Notes: generated by a model not told the origin, from the sequence alone. 64,000 nt of DNA from an uncultured Mollicutes bacterium (GCA_900539595.1 UQCQ01000001.1:80626-144625); one strand, 5' to 3'; numbered from the stretch's first letter, positions 42,098 through 58,950 are shown. Program-made: numbers and translations.

Positions 42098-42970
42098 TTA
42101 TTTCTTTTGGTCTTCTTCTTTTGGCCGATATAGCCCAGCCCCATAGAATTCAGGGAATTCCTCTTGGTTGATGTATTTATCAAACAGGGAAAAGGAAATG
42201 GAATAAAGCAAAAGGAGATACAAAGGCAGAACCAAAACGCATAAGACCATCTGAACAATGGCCACGATAAAAGGCAAAGTCTCCAAATAATGGAGTCCCG
42301 TGAAAATCGTGGCAATGCCAAGGCTCATCAAAAGGTATTTCCACCAAAAAGGGAAATAGAGTTTAATCGCATTAGAAATCGCGTGAAATACGTTGCATTC
42401 ATAAACGGAAGAGAAAATGGATGCCAACGTAAAAACCGGAATCACAATCAAAATCAGCAAGATATAGCAGGGGATGCCAAGAAGATATTCCATAAAGAAA
42501 GCATTCACAAATCGGCATAAGCCTAAAAGGATCGAAAAGAAAAATAAGAGGAGACAGGTATTCAAATAGTTCTGTTTCACCCCGCATTTAAAGTCATCCC
42601 AGAATAAAATCGGCTCCCCAGAAACCAAGGATTTTAGGATGCGGTTCACCCCTGCGATGGCAAGAGAAGCCACAAAGGTAAAAGCCACTTCGATGATCGA
42701 CCCATAAATCATCAAAGCATTCATCGACGCTTGATAATCTGCCTTGTTCATTTCTCCCGATAAATATTTTTGGTAGAACCCGACTTCGAATTGATTTTGG
42801 AAATAAACCGTCAAAATCAAAGGAAGGCAGCATAATAGGAGCCACAGCCCCGAAAGCAATAAAGTCGAGAACTGGTTCTTAAGGATGAAAAAATATTGGT
42901 CTTTCCTTGTTTGGGGAAGCTGGGTCGGCAAGAAATCCGAAGAAGCCGCTTTATTCTTTCGCTTTTTCAT
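42098..42970 (-). CDS. DUF624/YesL-like integral membrane protein
   Basis: 290 aa with ~6 TM. Its start overlaps the 3' end of the upstream ABC ATPase gene by 20 nt. Confidence 0.6.
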   Translation of the reverse strand: MKKRKNKAASSDFLPTQLPQTRKDQYFFILKNQFSTLLLSGLWLLLCCLPLILTVYFQNQFEVGFYQKYLSGEMNKADYQASMNALMIYGSIIEVAFTFVASLAIAGVNRILKSLVSGEPILFWDDFKCGVKQNYLNTCLLLFFFSILLGLCRFVNAFFMEYLLGIPCYILLILIVIPVFTLASIFSSVYECNVFHAISNAIKLYFPFWWKYLLMSLGIATIFTGLHYLETLPFIVAIVQMVLCVLVLPLYLLLLYSISFSLFDKYINQEEFPEFYGAGLYRPKEEDQKK

Positions 42971-43688
42971 CGTCTGCCGCCCTCATCTCGCACACAAAAT
43001 GATTGATGGAAGCCCGAATGGATTTCGGGGTTCCTTTTTCGATGAACTTCCCTTGATCCATCACATAGATTTGATCCGCAACTTCCATCGCTTCTTGATA
43101 AGAATGGGTGACATAAAGAATCGTCAAATGCCATTCCCGGTTTAATTCTTTGATAAAGTCGAGCACGTCTTTTTTTGACAGTTTATCCAGATGGGAAACC
43201 GGCTCATCCATCAAGACCACCTCAGGTTCCCCAACAAGTTCCCGAGCTAGCAAGGCCCTTTGTTGCTGTCCCCAGGACAAGTACTTGGGCTTTACATTCA
43301 AGCAATGGGCAATCCCGAATCGTTCGGCGATGTCTCTTGCCCTTTTATAGATTTCATCGCGGGACATCTTCTTATTTTTTAAGGGAAAGATGATGTTTTC
43401 AAAAATCGTCCAATGGGGATAAAGGCTTACGTCTTGGTTGATGTAAGCCATATTTCGTTGATAGGTGGGGATTTTATAGATGTCTTTATCGTCGAAAAAG
43501 ATGTCCCCATCGTATTCCATTAAGCCAAGAATCGATTTTAAAAGAGTGGTCTTGCCGCATCCGGAAGGCCCCATAATGACGCTGATTTTGCCAGAAGGAA
43601 AATGCTCCGTCATGTCTTCGATGACTAGATTTTCTTTCTTTCCCTTCCCGTAATAGCAATAAAGCTCTTTTAGCTCGATATTCGGCAT
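42951..43688 (-). CDS. stand-alone ABC-type ATP-binding protein
   Basis: Walker A GPSGCGKTT, signature-like LSWGQQQR and Walker B VVLMDEP. Length 245 aa. Confidence 0.85.
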   Translation of the reverse strand: MPNIELKELYCYYGKGKKENLVIEDMTEHFPSGKISVIMGPSGCGKTTLLKSILGLMEYDGDIFFDDKDIYKIPTYQRNMAYINQDVSLYPHWTIFENIIFPLKNKKMSRDEIYKRARDIAERFGIAHCLNVKPKYLSWGQQQRALLARELVGEPEVVLMDEPVSHLDKLSKKDVLDFIKELNREWHLTILYVTHSYQEAMEVADQIYVMDQGKFIEKGTPKSIRASINHFVCEMRAADDEKAKE

Positions 43689-43690
43689 AT

Positions 43691-56934: not shown

Positions 56935-56939
56935 CAAAA

Positions 56940-58787
56940 TTATTTCTTCTCAGGAGCGACGTAAACTTCGCCGTTAACCGTCAATCCATCCATGGCAGTC
57001 ATGATGCCGTGTTTCCAGTGTTTGATAAGGCCCAGGTATTTGCGGACCTTCAACGTGCAATTGGTGAATTGGGAATCGTTGCAGTGCTGCGTCGCGAAGA
57101 TCATGACGCAATCGCGGTCCCCTAAGTCGAAGGTGCAATCCGTGACAATGTTCGTCATGAAGCGGAAGGCTCCAACCCAGCCCCAATCGAGTTTGGTCAT
57201 ATCGGGATCATCGATGGAGAATGCGCCACCGGTAGCGCGCAAGGTCACGTTTTCAAGCTTCGTATTTTGAATGCCGCCAGCAAGAAGCGGGCAGTTATTC
57301 GTTCCGTTGAACCAAACGTCATTGAACGTCAGATTCTTAATGGTTGCTCCCTCCAACTGGCAGAAAAGACCATAGGAATAATTGCCTTGTCCCGTGATGG
57401 TTTTGCCATTTCCATCTAGCGTCCCTTTAAACGCATAATGGTTTACGTCATTTTTCCATCCACCAATCCAGGGCACGCCCAGGAAATTTTCGGCTTTATA
57501 GACGTCGTGGCTGATATTCTCCATCAACTTGTAATATCCGGTAACCACGTGGTCAGGATCAGAAGAACGAACCGGCTTAATCAAGCTGAAGGTTTCGTCA
57601 TTATCGTAAATTAACGCGGTAGCCATCGTGACTGGAACTTTGATTTCGTGGTCAAATTCCGGAACGATGCCATCTTTTGGAGTCGTGACGACGACCTTCA
57701 ATGCACCGACGCCATGGTGTTCTTTATGTTCTTTAAGCGCGGCGACATCCAAATTATTAAGGTCGGTTCCCAAATCATAGGAAGTGGTCTCATTCACTTC
57801 GTAACGGATGCTCTTCACCGTGTCTTTCGTGGCATCGAAGCTCGTGCCCGTTAAGGCAATCTTCGGAGTCGCATTCAAGTCGACGTCTTGGTTATCGACG
57901 ATCTTTTTGTTGAATTTAATAGGTTCTTGGCAAACGCAGCCAAAGACGTCGTATTCTTCGCTTTCCGTGTTCCAAGACGCGTCATTATGAGAGATGGTCA
58001 AGGTGGTAGACGCTTCCACTCCGTTATAGTCTTCCCCTTCTTGGACCGTCGCCTTCACGTAGAAGACTTTGGGGTCTGAGGAAGCGGGGGAATTCAAGAA
58101 AGAATAATCCGCGCCTAACTGTTCTGCGGTTTTGTATTCTCCATTCTCTGAATCCGCGAAGGTATAAACGATTTCCCCAAACGTGGAAGTCACGCCTTCT
58201 AGGCTAGAGAAGGGTTTGAAACCACAGACCTTTTCTAAGGGTTCCAGCCCTTCGATGACGTTTTCTTTCTTGCTTAAAGTGACATTGGTTTGAACCGTTA
58301 AATCACTATAGGTAAACGTCATCTTCAAATCTTGGGAGTTCAAATCTCCCACAGTGAAACTCGTCGCTCCCGAGGTCGGATAGGAATATTGGATTTTCGC
58401 CTTTTTGGCATCGCTTAATACCGTTCCTTGGCAGAATTCGCATTTCACCGCGAATTCGGCGTGTTCCATATCAAAGGTATCCCCAACGCAATAATGGGTT
58501 TGGAAGGAACCAGAAATCGTTAGTGCTTTCGTTCCTTTGTGGTTATTCGCATCGATGGGAGTTTTAACCGGGGCCTCGATCTCTGCCCCCGTCATGTCAA
58601 AAAACTTATCGCACCCCGAACAGGTTTGATAGGCTTCTGTCCCTTCTTCGCAGCAGGTGGGGAACACCTCTTCATGGGTTTCAAACTCATGAACGTGCTC
58701 TTTTTGGCCCCCACAGGAAACTAGTCCCATCAAGGCCAAAGAAGGCAGCACCAGCAACCGGACTTTTGGATTTTTCATCATCTTCAT
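56940..58787 (-). CDS. surface lipoprotein with a C-terminal beta-helix (GLUG-like) module; paralog of 46140..48020
   Basis: MKMMKNPKVRLLVLPSLALMGLVSCGG lipobox. ATG 58787 with GGAAAGGAG. C-terminal YAFKGTLDGNGKTITG...GATIKNLTFNDV. Confidence 0.75.
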   Translation of the reverse strand: MKMMKNPKVRLLVLPSLALMGLVSCGGQKEHVHEFETHEEVFPTCCEEGTEAYQTCSGCDKFFDMTGAEIEAPVKTPIDANNHKGTKALTISGSFQTHYCVGDTFDMEHAEFAVKCEFCQGTVLSDAKKAKIQYSYPTSGATSFTVGDLNSQDLKMTFTYSDLTVQTNVTLSKKENVIEGLEPLEKVCGFKPFSSLEGVTSTFGEIVYTFADSENGEYKTAEQLGADYSFLNSPASSDPKVFYVKATVQEGEDYNGVEASTTLTISHNDASWNTESEEYDVFGCVCQEPIKFNKKIVDNQDVDLNATPKIALTGTSFDATKDTVKSIRYEVNETTSYDLGTDLNNLDVAALKEHKEHHGVGALKVVVTTPKDGIVPEFDHEIKVPVTMATALIYDNDETFSLIKPVRSSDPDHVVTGYYKLMENISHDVYKAENFLGVPWIGGWKNDVNHYAFKGTLDGNGKTITGQGNYSYGLFCQLEGATIKNLTFNDVWFNGTNNCPLLAGGIQNTKLENVTLRATGGAFSIDDPDMTKLDWGWVGAFRFMTNIVTDCTFDLGDRDCVMIFATQHCNDSQFTNCTLKVRKYLGLIKHWKHGIMTAMDGLTVNGEVYVAPEKK

Positions 58788-58950
58788 AGCAGCTCCTTTC
58801 CTTTCGTTACAAGAAGATTGATTTCGTAGGAGGAGGTACAAGACGTTAAGCAAGCCATCAATGACCAAGGGATTGGCTCTTTAACGTTTCGCCCTTCAAG
58901 TTGAGGATGGAGGGGCTCAGGGGACCAATCGTCCCCGTTGCCCTAGAAAT

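Follow-up and report, generated by a model that had tools for sequence, protein, structure and literature searches.

Described systems of glycan capture and import

According to Sheridan 2016, a Gram-positive PUL (gpPUL) comprises one or more enzymes that degrade polysaccharides, a system for carbohydrate transport and a transcriptional regulator (PMC5320581). The gpPULs of Roseburia and Eubacterium rectale, which the locus described here resembles, combine a surface or secreted enzyme that degrades glycans, an ABC importer whose SBP is a lipoprotein, cytoplasmic glycoside hydrolases (GHs) and a regulator, and a genome harbours many such loci, which are substrate-specific; beyond enzyme, transporter and regulator, they have no hallmark gene set. 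A similar logic is found in the Sus-like PULs of Bacteroidota, where a lipoprotein-tethered enzyme and binders feed a dedicated importer and where, as in the cassette considered below, paralogous loci with variable accessory enzymes are recognised by a pair of genes that is conserved.

The DUF4838 domain is catalytic in both of its characterised representatives, each an active glycosidase. BT1035 of Bacteroides thetaiotaomicron, the founder of GH163, is located at the cell surface, where it strips complex N-glycans of their LacNAc antennae (PMC10154615), acting in endo-mode so that the antennae are freed before import. Sp_0475 of Streptococcus pneumoniae, the founder of GH185, is a 6-sulfo-beta-GlcNAcase with an active site formed by Q174, H227, D309, Y436 and R633; together with essentially its whole cluster (SSN cluster 3), it has no signal peptide and is cytoplasmic (PMC10570127).

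The locus and its host

The window analysed here, that is, the whole stretch of 64,000 nt, comes from an uncultured Mollicutes bacterium. Public records list its SufB, as an exact match, under 'MAG [Mollicutes bacterium]', and a member of the 90%-identity cluster of its GH36 protein is labelled 'Candidatus Enteromonas sp.', in line with the mollicute-like host originally proposed. Candidatus Enteromonas corresponds to GTDB UBA733, order RFN20, family CAG-826 (PMC8035907); for CAG-826, a deficiency in peptidoglycan is predicted, and sortases are missing from RFN20 (PMC10868615). The host is probably Candidatus Enteromonas (order RFN20), of a gut lineage predicted to lack peptidoglycan.

Ten genes, all on the minus strand, occupy positions 42098-58868, at the coordinates that the preliminary description had given them; the lengths below are gene calls on metagenome contigs identical to the window.

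56940..58787, minus strand: BH1 lipoprotein, 615 aa, lipobox LVSC; Cys/His-rich N-terminal segment, beta-helix-like C-terminal module
54974..56692, minus strand: lipoprotein SBP, 572 aa, lipobox LASC, opening the five-gene cassette; SBP_bac_8 6e-07
54039..54974, minus strand: ABC permease 1, 311 aa, MalF/UgpA-like; BPD_transp_1 1.3e-13; order conserved
53124..54005, minus strand: ABC permease 2, 293 aa, MalG/UgpE-like; BPD_transp_1 1.7e-15
50013..53105, minus strand: Big1036, secreted all-beta protein of ~1,030 aa (called length 1030 aa); type-I signal peptide
48033..50000, minus strand: DUF4838 (PF16126) lipoprotein, 655 aa, lipobox LASC
46140..48020, minus strand: BH2 lipoprotein, 626 aa, lipobox LTSC, closing the presumed cassette operon; C-terminal ~170 aa beta-helix-like
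46101..46117, minus strand: hairpin and T-run between BH2 and GH36, likely the intrinsic terminator of the cassette operon
43691..46000, minus strand: cytoplasmic GH36 alpha-galactosidase, 769 aa; Melibiase 1e-129
42951..43688, minus strand: short MalK/UgpC-type ABC ATPase, 245 aa; ABC_tran 7.7e-30
42098..42970, minus strand: polytopic membrane protein, 290 aa, conserved partner of the ATPase; the two genes overlap by 20 nt

The genes from SBP to BH2 follow one another with 0-12 nt spacing or overlaps, with gaps of 247 nt between BH1 and SBP and of 139 nt between BH2 and GH36; a hairpin at 56905-56934 lies past the BH1 stop. Gaps and hairpins fit the three transcription units initially proposed, with BH1 appearing to form a unit of its own (it lies on the opposite strand in the related loci L008-L010). 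Promoter and terminator counts across the genome show no excess over chance, so that we infer the three units, and the co-transcription of the cassette genes, from the gene arrangement.

As for the gpPUL components, the transport system is represented by SBP_bac_8, two BPD_transp_1 permeases and ABC_tran, the enzymes, known from sequence, by GH36 and the DUF4838 protein as a candidate surface glycosidase, and the regulator by a single candidate, an HTH_3-ARH protein at 61533-63119. In contrast to gpPULs, the cassette has a fixed five-gene core across classes, and its candidate surface enzyme would be held by a lipid anchor, where theirs are cell-wall-anchored or carry CBMs. Unlike Sus-like PULs, it has no outer membrane, TonB-dependent transporter or SusD and relies on CUT1-type ABC import; the genes between 32107 and 63897 contain no SusC or SusD domains and no SusC-like plus SusD-like pair, which sets the region apart from Bacteroidota PULs, and the components are not homologous except for the DUF4838 domain common to BT1035. 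We consider it reasonably probable that the region is a Gram-positive-type PUL with a surface DUF4838 enzyme, binders, ABC import and GH36. The earlier view of a PUL-like locus dedicated to glycan capture and import, with lipoprotein-anchored surface parts, is thereby retained.

A DUF4838 lipoprotein as candidate surface glycosidase

The preliminary description had held that the locus contains no signal-peptide-bearing GH and that all its surface proteins only bind or present substrate, and had itself named a confident catalytic-domain match in these proteins as evidence to the contrary. Such a match is found in the lipobox-bearing protein with the CCQCDAC motif, which aligns to the Pfam family DUF4838/PF16126 (2.2e-34; 119.5 bits, the cut-off being 26.6) over residues 187-526, covering profile positions 18-324 of 325, so that the first claim has to be given up and the second is no longer supported. 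Otherwise, the HMM search of the four large surface proteins recovered no classical secreted GH (GH5, GH16, GH18 and similar). PF16126 is present in all 120 homologues among the matches listed, 119 of which carry a Cys within the first 45 residues; the lipoprotein signal ...LTLASC↓S includes a lipobox Cys that is invariant in 58 homologues.

In the structural model (pLDDT 94), an alpha/beta domain at the N-terminus is followed by a TIM barrel and, at the C-terminus, by a helical bundle; its structural neighbours are almost all glycosidases (GH115, GH84, GH20), whereas a sequence search for a solved structure found no match. The CCQCDAC motif is encoded as follows:

49035..49067, minus strand: codons of D312-x4-C317-x-C319-x2-C322 (the CCQCDAC motif), a candidate catalytic Asp and three of four invariant Cys

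The fourth invariant Cys is C272. D312 and all four Cys are invariant in the 58 homologues and in paralogues of 23-36% identity, cytoplasmic ones included, and the Cys quartet might form a structural metal (Zn?) site; the report on Sp_0475 describes no Cys cluster, and the words 'cysteine' and 'zinc' are absent from it (PMC10570127). H239, Y373, Y438, Q475 and R625, which with D312 form the candidate active site, are invariant as well, including in these distant paralogues. In the model, D312, which comes after barrel strand 305-307, as well as Y373, Y438 and Q475, are located at or just past the C-terminal ends of barrel strands.

Sp_0475 is likewise a DUF4838 TIM barrel with GH115 and GH84 as the closest solved folds, and the spacing of its His, Asp, Tyr and Arg resembles that of H239, D312, Y438 and R625, with 126 residues from D312 to Y438 as compared to 127 from D309 to Y436; no clear equivalent of Q174 was found in the window protein, E194 lacking conservation in distant paralogues. 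Unlike cytoplasmic Sp_0475, the window protein is a lipoprotein and hence does not share the lack of a signal peptide that is typical of SSN cluster 3. With BT1035, it has the Pfam domain and the cell-surface location, predicted from its lipobox, in common, so that it is comparable to GH163 at the level of this domain; BT1035 carries a C-terminal F5/F8 type C domain, whereas the window protein ends in the helical bundle. Judging from spacing and conservation, the active sites of the three proteins may be equivalent. Given the conserved residues, the glycosidase fold and the PF16126 match, the CCQCDAC lipoprotein is likely a surface glycosidase and a candidate member of the GH163/GH185 superfamily.

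Big1036, a candidate binder or scaffold

The Ig-like exoprotein of the preliminary description consists of six Ig-like domains and two ConA-like jelly-rolls (at about 128-360 and 660-830 of the 1036-aa ORF), a ConA-like lectin fold. The family comprises more than 2,000 clusters at 50% identity and has no name; among 170 members (median identity 28%), positions that are shared by 90% or more hold mainly Gly, Pro, Tyr and Asp. No catalytic domain was found by Pfam or NCBIfam. The signal peptide is without a lipobox Cys and, with no obvious anchor, the protein might just be shed by the cell. Big1036 differs from the Sas6-type secreted multi-domain binders of Ruminococcus bromii in its strict pairing with the DUF4838 gene and in having no dockerin by Pfam; Sas6 uses CBM modules, and the ConA-like jelly-rolls of Big1036 differ from those.

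It might be argued that Big1036 is the key endo-acting glycanase or lyase, built on a ConA-like jelly-roll like GH16, PL7 and PL18, and that the DUF4838 protein trims its products: a polar cluster in the first jelly-roll (H223, H252, Q253, D261, W266, D286, D317, D319) is invariant or nearly so in 16 orthologues, and the strict pairing with DUF4838 would fit a two-enzyme relay as well. However, this cluster is conserved only in close orthologues and, D319 excepted, is not kept across the wider family, whereas catalytic residues are usually conserved; variability is highest in the second of the two jelly-rolls; and neither a GH16-type ExDxxE nor a PL7-type motif is recognised by eye, so that, also given the absence of a Pfam or NCBIfam catalytic match, we regard this possibility as rather unlikely. 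The ConA-like fold and a polar cluster that is not family-wide argue for Big1036 as a candidate glycan binder or scaffold rather than an enzyme, consistent with the binding role first assigned to it.

Proposed import and cytoplasmic breakdown

The importer was identified correctly at the outset: Pfam yields SBP_bac_8 and twice BPD_transp_1, and the SBP also matches an NCBIfam carbohydrate SBP model (7e-11). The ATPase, confirmed as ABC_tran, aligns to GlcV, UgpC and MalK over their N-terminal ~225 residues only, being devoid of the C-terminal regulatory domain, and presumably energises the importer. In 17-18 related loci, the 290-aa membrane protein accompanies it as a partner. For the latter protein, the initial label DUF624 (PF04854, YesL-type) had to be dropped: it shows no Pfam match at E<=0.1 and none in NCBIfam, and among 13 homologues a single one reaches DUF624, with E=0.088. 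The alpha-galactosidase has all three GH36 domains (N-terminal, 5.8e-63; Melibiase, 1e-129; C-terminal, 9.3e-10) and closely matches characterised enzymes, the top PDB match being the alpha-galactosidase 3mi6 (5.6e-164), followed by Geobacillus AgaA/AgaB (~1e-155). A GH95/GH20C pair is found at 23465-27743, about 16-20 kb away; no signal peptide was found in GH36, GH95 or GH20, and their cytoplasmic assignment stands.

The following sequence of events can be envisaged. At the cell surface, the membrane-tethered DUF4838 enzyme would cut oligosaccharides off a glycan that is polymeric or linked to protein; Big1036 and the two BH lipoproteins would serve in substrate binding or presentation and might form a complex with this enzyme; the SBP would pass the products to the permeases, with import driven by the short MalK-type ATPase; and cytoplasmic GH36 would finish the breakdown, probably with the help of GH95 and GH20C. 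The alternative in which no extracellular enzyme is involved, so that the surface proteins bind and present, intact oligosaccharides are imported and cytoplasmic GHs degrade them, draws on the absence of a classical secreted GH among the four surface proteins, the binder-like character of Big1036 and the cytoplasmic GHs, but runs against the full-length DUF4838 TIM-barrel protein, the invariance of its candidate catalytic residues in distant paralogues, the glycosidases that surround its fold, and the activity of both BT1035 and Sp_0475; in our judgment, it is quite improbable.

As to the substrate, the alpha-galactosidase alone fits raffinose-type oligosaccharides, for which no surface enzyme is required. 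Several related cassettes contain N-glycan-type accessory enzymes (GH38, GH130, GH2, GH20C, GH95), reminiscent of the function of BT1035, while the presence of GH78, GH115 and GH127 in some others suggests glycans of plants or gums that are free of HexNAc, so that a GH20-like substrate-assisted mechanism may not suit every member of the family, or the window protein.

A recurrent five-gene core

The synteny search proposed earlier showed that the order SBP, permease, permease, ~1,000-aa secreted all-beta protein, DUF4838 lipoprotein recurs in dozens of Firmicutes loci. Among loci with sufficient flank from Clostridia and Bacilli gut MAGs, Big1036 is directly upstream of DUF4838 in 67 of 68; of 61 related loci with sufficient flank, 60 encode an SBP homologue, and both permeases are found in 58 of 63. 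Reverse look-ups from two Big1036 relatives returned the same arrangement. At least 10 assemblies supply two or more of the 80 loci, there often being several cassettes per genome. The cytoplasmic accessory enzymes vary from locus to locus, as do the regulators (enzymes: GH2, GH20C, GH36, GH38, GH63-like, GH78, GH95, GH109-like, GH115, GH123, GH127, GH130). The arrangement is not special to mollicute-like bacteria: MAGs that bear the label Clostridia commonly have it, and several of these are Christensenellales or Candidatus Scatosoma. No published description of this gene set was found in the literature searched, in accord with the initial impression that it matches no named system. The five-gene core, with two uncharacterised families within, is apparently an undescribed one that recurs in dozens of gut Firmicutes loci.

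The putative beta-helix lipoproteins

BH-like proteins are encoded in 56 of 78 loci. BH1 and BH2 share 26% identity (E 2e-07) over the C-terminal ~170 aa only, where an FxGxxDGxGxxI motif and four spaced phi-x-N-phi-T-phi repeats weakly suggest a beta-helix. Peptidase_M26_N scores 24.9 and 15.9 bits in the two proteins, both below the cut-off of 27.7 (BH1, 1.4e-05), the N-terminal part of BH2 gives weak matches to beta-sheet domains (HL_N-beta), the only PDB profile match is a pectinesterase (N-terminal part, E 0.0016), and a fused homologue weakly matches Pectate_lyase_5. Of the beta-helix lipoproteins first described, the lipoboxes stand, and a beta-helical character is weakly suggested for the C-terminal ~170 aa only. 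In loci L035, L038, L055 and L056, the module is fused N-terminally to DUF4838, which ties the BH proteins to the enzyme. That the large surface proteins, with their Ig-like domains and a beta-helix resembling the IgA1-protease N-terminal region, serve a wall-less commensal mainly in adhesion or in interaction with its host, and just adjoin an ordinary alpha-galactoside importer, is very improbable: the weak M26_N and 'pectate-lyase-like adhesive domain' matches, the Ig-like domains common in adhesins and the separate BH1 unit would suit it, but the gene order with the ABC importer is kept in about 60 loci and tightly spaced in the window, the accessory genes are overwhelmingly glycosidases and sugar regulators, and a domain of glycosidase type occurs in fusion with the beta-helix module.

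Probable upstream extension

The ten genes do lie at 42098-58868 as originally delimited, but the locus as a Gram-positive-type PUL probably reaches upstream to about 63119, with three more genes:

58951..60192, minus strand: cytoplasmic GFO/IDH/MocA oxidoreductase (Pfam), 413 aa; probable accessory gene
60213..61409, minus strand: Y_phosphatase3 lipoprotein, 398 aa, lipobox LVSC; Pfam 8.6e-35
61533..63119, minus strand: XRE-type HTH and ADP-ribosylglycohydrolase-like (ARH) fusion, 528 aa; HTH_3 2e-16, ADP_ribosyl_GH 1.1e-48

The oxidoreductase resembles inositol and glycoside 3-dehydrogenases weakly, with scores below threshold, and genes of the GFO type occur in 8 related loci. The Y_phosphatase3 lipoprotein, a probable accessory surface phosphatase, is part of the locus in L008-L010, too, and in L062 its gene separates those of SBP and Big1036. 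The HTH_3-ARH protein, encoded on the same strand, is the sole candidate regulator of the locus; related loci contain AraC (24) and ArsR-type (7) regulators, and ARH-like proteins are found in 11 of them.

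Layout of the locus and its host

All ten genes listed in the preliminary description are present on the minus strand between positions 42098 and 58868 of the window, with products of 615, 572, 311, 293, 1030, 655, 626, 769, 245 and 290 amino acids according to the gene calls on identical metagenome contigs. Pfam and NCBIfam searches confirmed the SBP_bac_8 binding protein (SBP) and two BPD_transp_1 permeases; the match of the 245-residue ABC ATPase to GlcV, UgpC and MalK is confined to their nucleotide-binding part. The GH36 protein has three domains (Melibiase, 1e-129 in Pfam), its nearest known enzymes being 3mi6 and AgaA/AgaB. 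Lipoboxes are found in four proteins (LVSC, LASC, LASC and LTSC), and the 1030-residue protein has a signal peptide with no lipobox cysteine. A search of PDB sequences with the SBP gave no match. The separate GH95/GH20C gene pair (23465-27743) is real as well, and GH36, GH95 and GH20C all lack a signal peptide. The features referred to most often below are:

56940-58787, minus strand: BH1, a lipoprotein with a putative beta-helix module
50013-53105, minus strand: Big1036, a secreted protein with Ig-like and jelly-roll domains
48033-50000, minus strand: the DUF4838 lipoprotein, with the CCQCDAC motif
46140-48020, minus strand: BH2, a second lipoprotein with the putative beta-helix module
46117-46101, minus strand: hairpin with a T-run after BH2, the sole convincing terminator signal of the scan

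The gene spacing fits the three transcription units originally proposed: BH1 is set off from the SBP gene by 247 nt and BH2 from GH36 by 139 nt, and the genes in between, SBP through BH2, overlap or are spaced by 0-12 nt. Promoter- and terminator-like sites, however, were not enriched in the scans as compared to shuffled sequences, so that the operon structure is one that we infer. Another hairpin directly follows BH1, and Rfam yielded no riboswitch or leader RNA within 41000-64000. The ATPase gene overlaps by 20 nt the gene of the 290-residue polytopic membrane protein (42098-43688, minus strand, for the two genes); the ATPase is devoid of the C-terminal regulatory domain of MalK-type proteins and the membrane protein matches no family, its former DUF624 label having been dropped for want of Pfam support in the window protein.

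The view of the host as a Mollicutes-like organism that anchors its proteins by lipid is supported by the record labels and by the published accounts of CAG-826 and RFN20. An identical SufB and a member of the 90%-identity cluster of the DUF4838 lipoprotein are both labelled "MAG [Mollicutes bacterium]"; the GH36 cluster includes a protein recorded under "Candidatus Enteromonas sp.". Candidatus Enteromonas corresponds to GTDB UBA733 (order RFN20, family CAG-826); its genomes measure 1.2-1.8 Mb and have a GC content of 47-57% (PMC8035907). A peptidoglycan deficiency is predicted for CAG-826, and sortases are absent from RFN20 (PMC10868615). The objection that an organism with 47% GC is not Mollicutes-like was overturned by the source labels and by the GC range of Candidatus Enteromonas type genomes. 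The organism appears to be lipoprotein-rich, and its species is present in gut samples from Hadza, Nepali and other sources.

A candidate glycosidase at the cell surface

The central claim of the preliminary description, namely, that the locus has no surface glycosidase, does not stand: the CCQCDAC lipoprotein carries a DUF4838 domain (PF16126; 119.5 bits, cut-off 26.6), by virtue of which, under the criterion set in that description, the locus counts as a surface-GH locus. Two CAZy families, GH163 and GH185, have DUF4838 as their catalytic module (PMC10570127, PMC10154615). The founder of GH163, the cell-surface BT1035 of Bacteroides thetaiotaomicron, hydrolyses GlcNAc-beta1,2-Man and frees the LacNAc antennae of complex N-glycans (PMC10570127, PMC10154615); the founder of GH185, Sp_0475 of Streptococcus pneumoniae, is a 6-sulfo-beta-GlcNAcase (PMC10570127). 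The predicted enzyme of the window belongs to DUF4838, and its tie to GH163 and GH185 is known through the shared Pfam domain; a search of PDB sequences gave no match.

An AlphaFold model built with 58 homologues as input is very confident (pLDDT 94.1, pTM 0.91) and consists of an N-terminal alpha/beta domain, a TIM barrel and a C-terminal helical bundle. Ten residues (H239, C272, D312, C317, C319, C322, Y373, Y438, Q475 and R625) are invariant across the 58 homologues and remain so in paralogues that are no more than 23-36% identical, some of which lack a signal peptide. In the model, D312, Y373, Y438 and Q475 lie at or just past the C-terminal ends of barrel strands. The spacing between D312 and Y438 is 126 residues, as compared to 127 for D309 and Y436 of Sp_0475, both of which are mutationally important (PMC10570127); judged from this spacing, D312 and Y438 would be the equivalents of that pair. 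The CxCxxC motif does not single out a novel lipoprotein: its cysteines and C272 look like a four-cysteine site common to the family, presumably a structural metal site, beside the candidate catalytic aspartate. Since the lipobox cysteine is likewise invariant across the 58 homologues, attachment to the cell surface is a conserved trait of the DUF4838 clade.

The secreted protein and the beta-helix lipoproteins

An exhaustive profile search retrieved 7,746 relatives of Big1036 (2,020 at E<=1e-30), and at 50% identity the family falls into over 2,000 clusters. The best 150 of these 7,746 relatives are nearly all about 1,000 residues long and align end to end, and most members have a type-I signal peptide and no lipobox. 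The family is large, uniform and unnamed, with weak, Ig-like Pfam matches; PDB sequences gave only chance-level matches. Among 170 members with a median identity of 28%, the residues conserved at 90% or more are mostly scaffold glycine, proline, tyrosine and aspartate, and of all domains the second jelly-roll varies most. Such conservation is what one would expect of a binding protein that determines specificity rather than of a conserved catalytic center. A catalytic role of the GH16 or PL7 type is unlikely because the polar cluster of the first jelly-roll is kept among close orthologues only and not family-wide.

BH1 and BH2, described initially as paralogous beta-helix lipoproteins, share their C-terminal ~170 residues (26% identity, E 2e-07) but nothing beyond. 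The shared module contains an FxGxxDGxGxxI motif and four spaced phi-x-N-phi-T-phi repeats and has below-threshold Pfam matches to Peptidase_M26_N; a beta-helix fold is plausible for it on these sequence features. When the BH2 family was run as a profile against PDB, the one match was a marginal one, to a pectinesterase, and it fell in the N-terminal part and not in the beta-helix module. In related loci from other genomes, the BH module is fused N-terminally to DUF4838 (1,539 residues in L055, 1,863 in L056, about 990 in L035/L038), and such Rosetta-stone fusions tie the BH proteins to the enzyme. Residues ~57-96 of the 642-residue BH1 open reading frame (about 58580-58700, minus strand), just past the lipobox, form a Cys/His-rich segment, HVHEFETHEEVFPTCCEEGTEAYQTCSGCDKFF, that looks like a small metal-binding module.

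Conservation of a five-gene cassette

A pattern scan with the DUF4838 alignment, using one genome per GTDB species, gave 294 confirmed relatives and returned 80 loci, which were compared by tblastn with all window proteins. Where the flanking sequence was long enough, the gene directly upstream of DUF4838 was a Big1036 homologue in 67 of 68 loci; SBP was found in 60 of 61 loci and the two permeases together in 58 of 63, the order being unchanged. Reverse look-ups from two Big1036 relatives recovered the same arrangement; the reciprocal association rests on these two look-ups and the loci chosen through DUF4838. A scan of metagenome contigs with the Big1036 alignment returned three loci only, all close relatives.

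Around this core, the gene content varies. BH-like proteins occur in 56 of 78 loci, mostly just downstream; the short ATPase and its 290-residue membrane partner are kept in 17-18, sometimes on the opposite strand; regulators are of the AraC (24 loci) or ArsR type (seven). The signal-less glycosidases change from locus to locus (GH2, GH20C, GH36, GH38, GH63-like, GH78, GH95, GH109-like, GH115, GH123, GH127 and GH130), and a NagA-like amidohydrolase is also among the variable accessory proteins. A fixed capture-and-import core with substrate-specific accessory genes is PUL-like modularity.

The majority of the related loci belong to MAGs whose label is Clostridia, with Christensenellales or Candidatus Scatosoma given for several; the cassette is not confined to wall-less, Mollicutes-like bacteria. 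Nine loci (L015, L017, L019, L023, L039, L049, L068, L078 and L079) carry a Firmicute-type cassette in bins labelled Parasutterella, Bacteroidales, Paludibacteraceae, Bacteroidaceae or Acidiphilium; these MAGs are probably wrongly labelled or contaminated, horizontal transfer being the less likely explanation. At least 10 assemblies supply two to four of the 80 loci. On contig CAKQMB010000003.1, two complete cassettes, L075 (177917-199845) and L085 (203729-225732), lie ~4 kb apart, and the same assembly supplies two further loci, suggesting tandem or paralogous expansion of the cassette.

A signal-less family of ~556 residues, with no Pfam, NCBIfam or PDB match, was seen in L009 (13871-15541), L011 (3182-4852), L012 (9346-11034), L013 (13892-15547), L027 (13886-15556) and six more loci. 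Its gene lies between BH2 and GH36 in close relatives and is absent from the window, where 139 nt separate the two.

Proposed mechanism and significance

We consider it fairly probable that the locus encodes a system of surface capture, import and cytoplasmic degradation in four steps. The membrane-tethered DUF4838 enzyme would cut oligosaccharides off a larger glycan at the cell surface; Big1036 and the BH lipoproteins would hold or present the substrate, possibly in a complex, which would also account for the retention of the unanchored Big1036; the products would be imported by SBP and the permeases, driven by the short MalK-type ATPase; and the cytoplasmic GH36 alpha-galactosidase would break them down, probably helped by GH95 and GH20C, whose genes lie about 16-20 kb away. 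As to the substrate, alpha-galactosylated host or dietary glycans are our guess.

The locus fits the gpPUL concept of enzyme, transporter and regulator (Sheridan et al., PMC5320581), the regulator being tentatively assigned in the window. It would work similarly to a Bacteroidota Sus system but is not one, because the SusC/SusD pair is absent. The GH185 cluster is cytoplasmic, whereas the DUF4838 protein of the window has a lipoprotein signal. Our literature search on DUF4838, carried out outside subscription journals, found no description of the five-gene cassette. Since its core is conserved, apparently undescribed and built on two poorly characterised families, the locus is not an ordinary surface-GH locus. 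The original observation was largely accurate and its interpretation as a PUL-like, lipid-anchored system of a Mollicutes-like host is retained, but not the absence of a surface glycosidase.

A wider reading, which we put forward tentatively and at somewhat short of an even chance, is that the Big1036-DUF4838 pair after SBP-permease-permease is the hallmark of a large undescribed class of glycan loci in uncultured gut Bacillota, a Gram-positive counterpart of SusC/SusD, paralogously expanded, with each copy tuned to a different host or plant glycan, and with two new functional families. If so, these would be a new type of surface glycan-binding protein and a Cys4-metal DUF4838 glycosidase clade, with specificities extending past the two known HexNAc-cleaving activities, and the wall-less RFN20 bacteria would show a PUL-like surface machine built on lipid anchors alone.

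How gut Firmicutes and the wall-less bacteria related to them forage for glycans is much less clear than it is for Bacteroides, in part for want of signature genes that mark their utilisation loci. A recognisable fixed five-gene core would enable systematic locus discovery in uncultured Christensenellales, RFN20 and related lineages, which figure prominently in non-industrialised human and animal guts. Only two relatives of the DUF4838 clade have been characterised; together with Big1036, the clade offers candidate new glycan-binding and glycosidase specificities, potentially useful for glycan analysis or remodelling. For a predicted peptidoglycan-less organism with a genome of about 1.2-1.8 Mb, a locus of about 17-21 kb is a large investment, and its size points to how Candidatus Enteromonas organisms make their living.

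Upstream and other neighbouring genes

Three same-strand genes upstream of BH1 are probably part of the system, since related loci repeatedly contain homologues of them:

58951-60192, minus strand: GFO/IDH/MocA oxidoreductase, with weak sub-threshold matches to 3-dehydrogenases and inositol dehydrogenases
60213-61409, minus strand: Y_phosphatase3 (tyrosine-phosphatase-fold) lipoprotein, lipobox LVSC
61533-63119, minus strand: fusion of an XRE-type HTH and an ADP-ribosylglycohydrolase (ARH)-like domain

The 3-dehydrogenases matched by the first protein are Bacteroides disaccharide/glycoside enzymes of the BT_2159 and BT_2158 families, which could hint at an oxidative step of glycoside cleavage. 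A GH109 identity was rejected, the window protein having no Glyco_hydro_109_C match; some related loci carry one. The Y_phosphatase3 gene follows that of the 290-residue membrane protein in L008-L010 and lies between the SBP and Big1036 genes in L062; the predicted surface-tethered product may have phosphorylated glycans as its substrates. Of 78 related loci, 11 encode an ARH-like protein of about 500 residues on the strand of the cassette, at least one of these proteins being without the HTH; besides the window, they are recorded for L013, L014, L016, L017, L021, L023, L030, L037, L076 and L079. We know of no role of ARH-fold proteins in glycan loci; they could sense a ligand and act as regulators, or be sugar-acting enzymes of a new type.

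Elsewhere in the window, two adjacent lipoproteins on the plus strand (5747-7864, 705 residues, LVGC; 7877-9553, 558 residues, LASC) match no Pfam family, one of them containing a weak PrsA-like segment, and a lipobox-like LIGC motif lies inside the open reading frame at 28821-29534.
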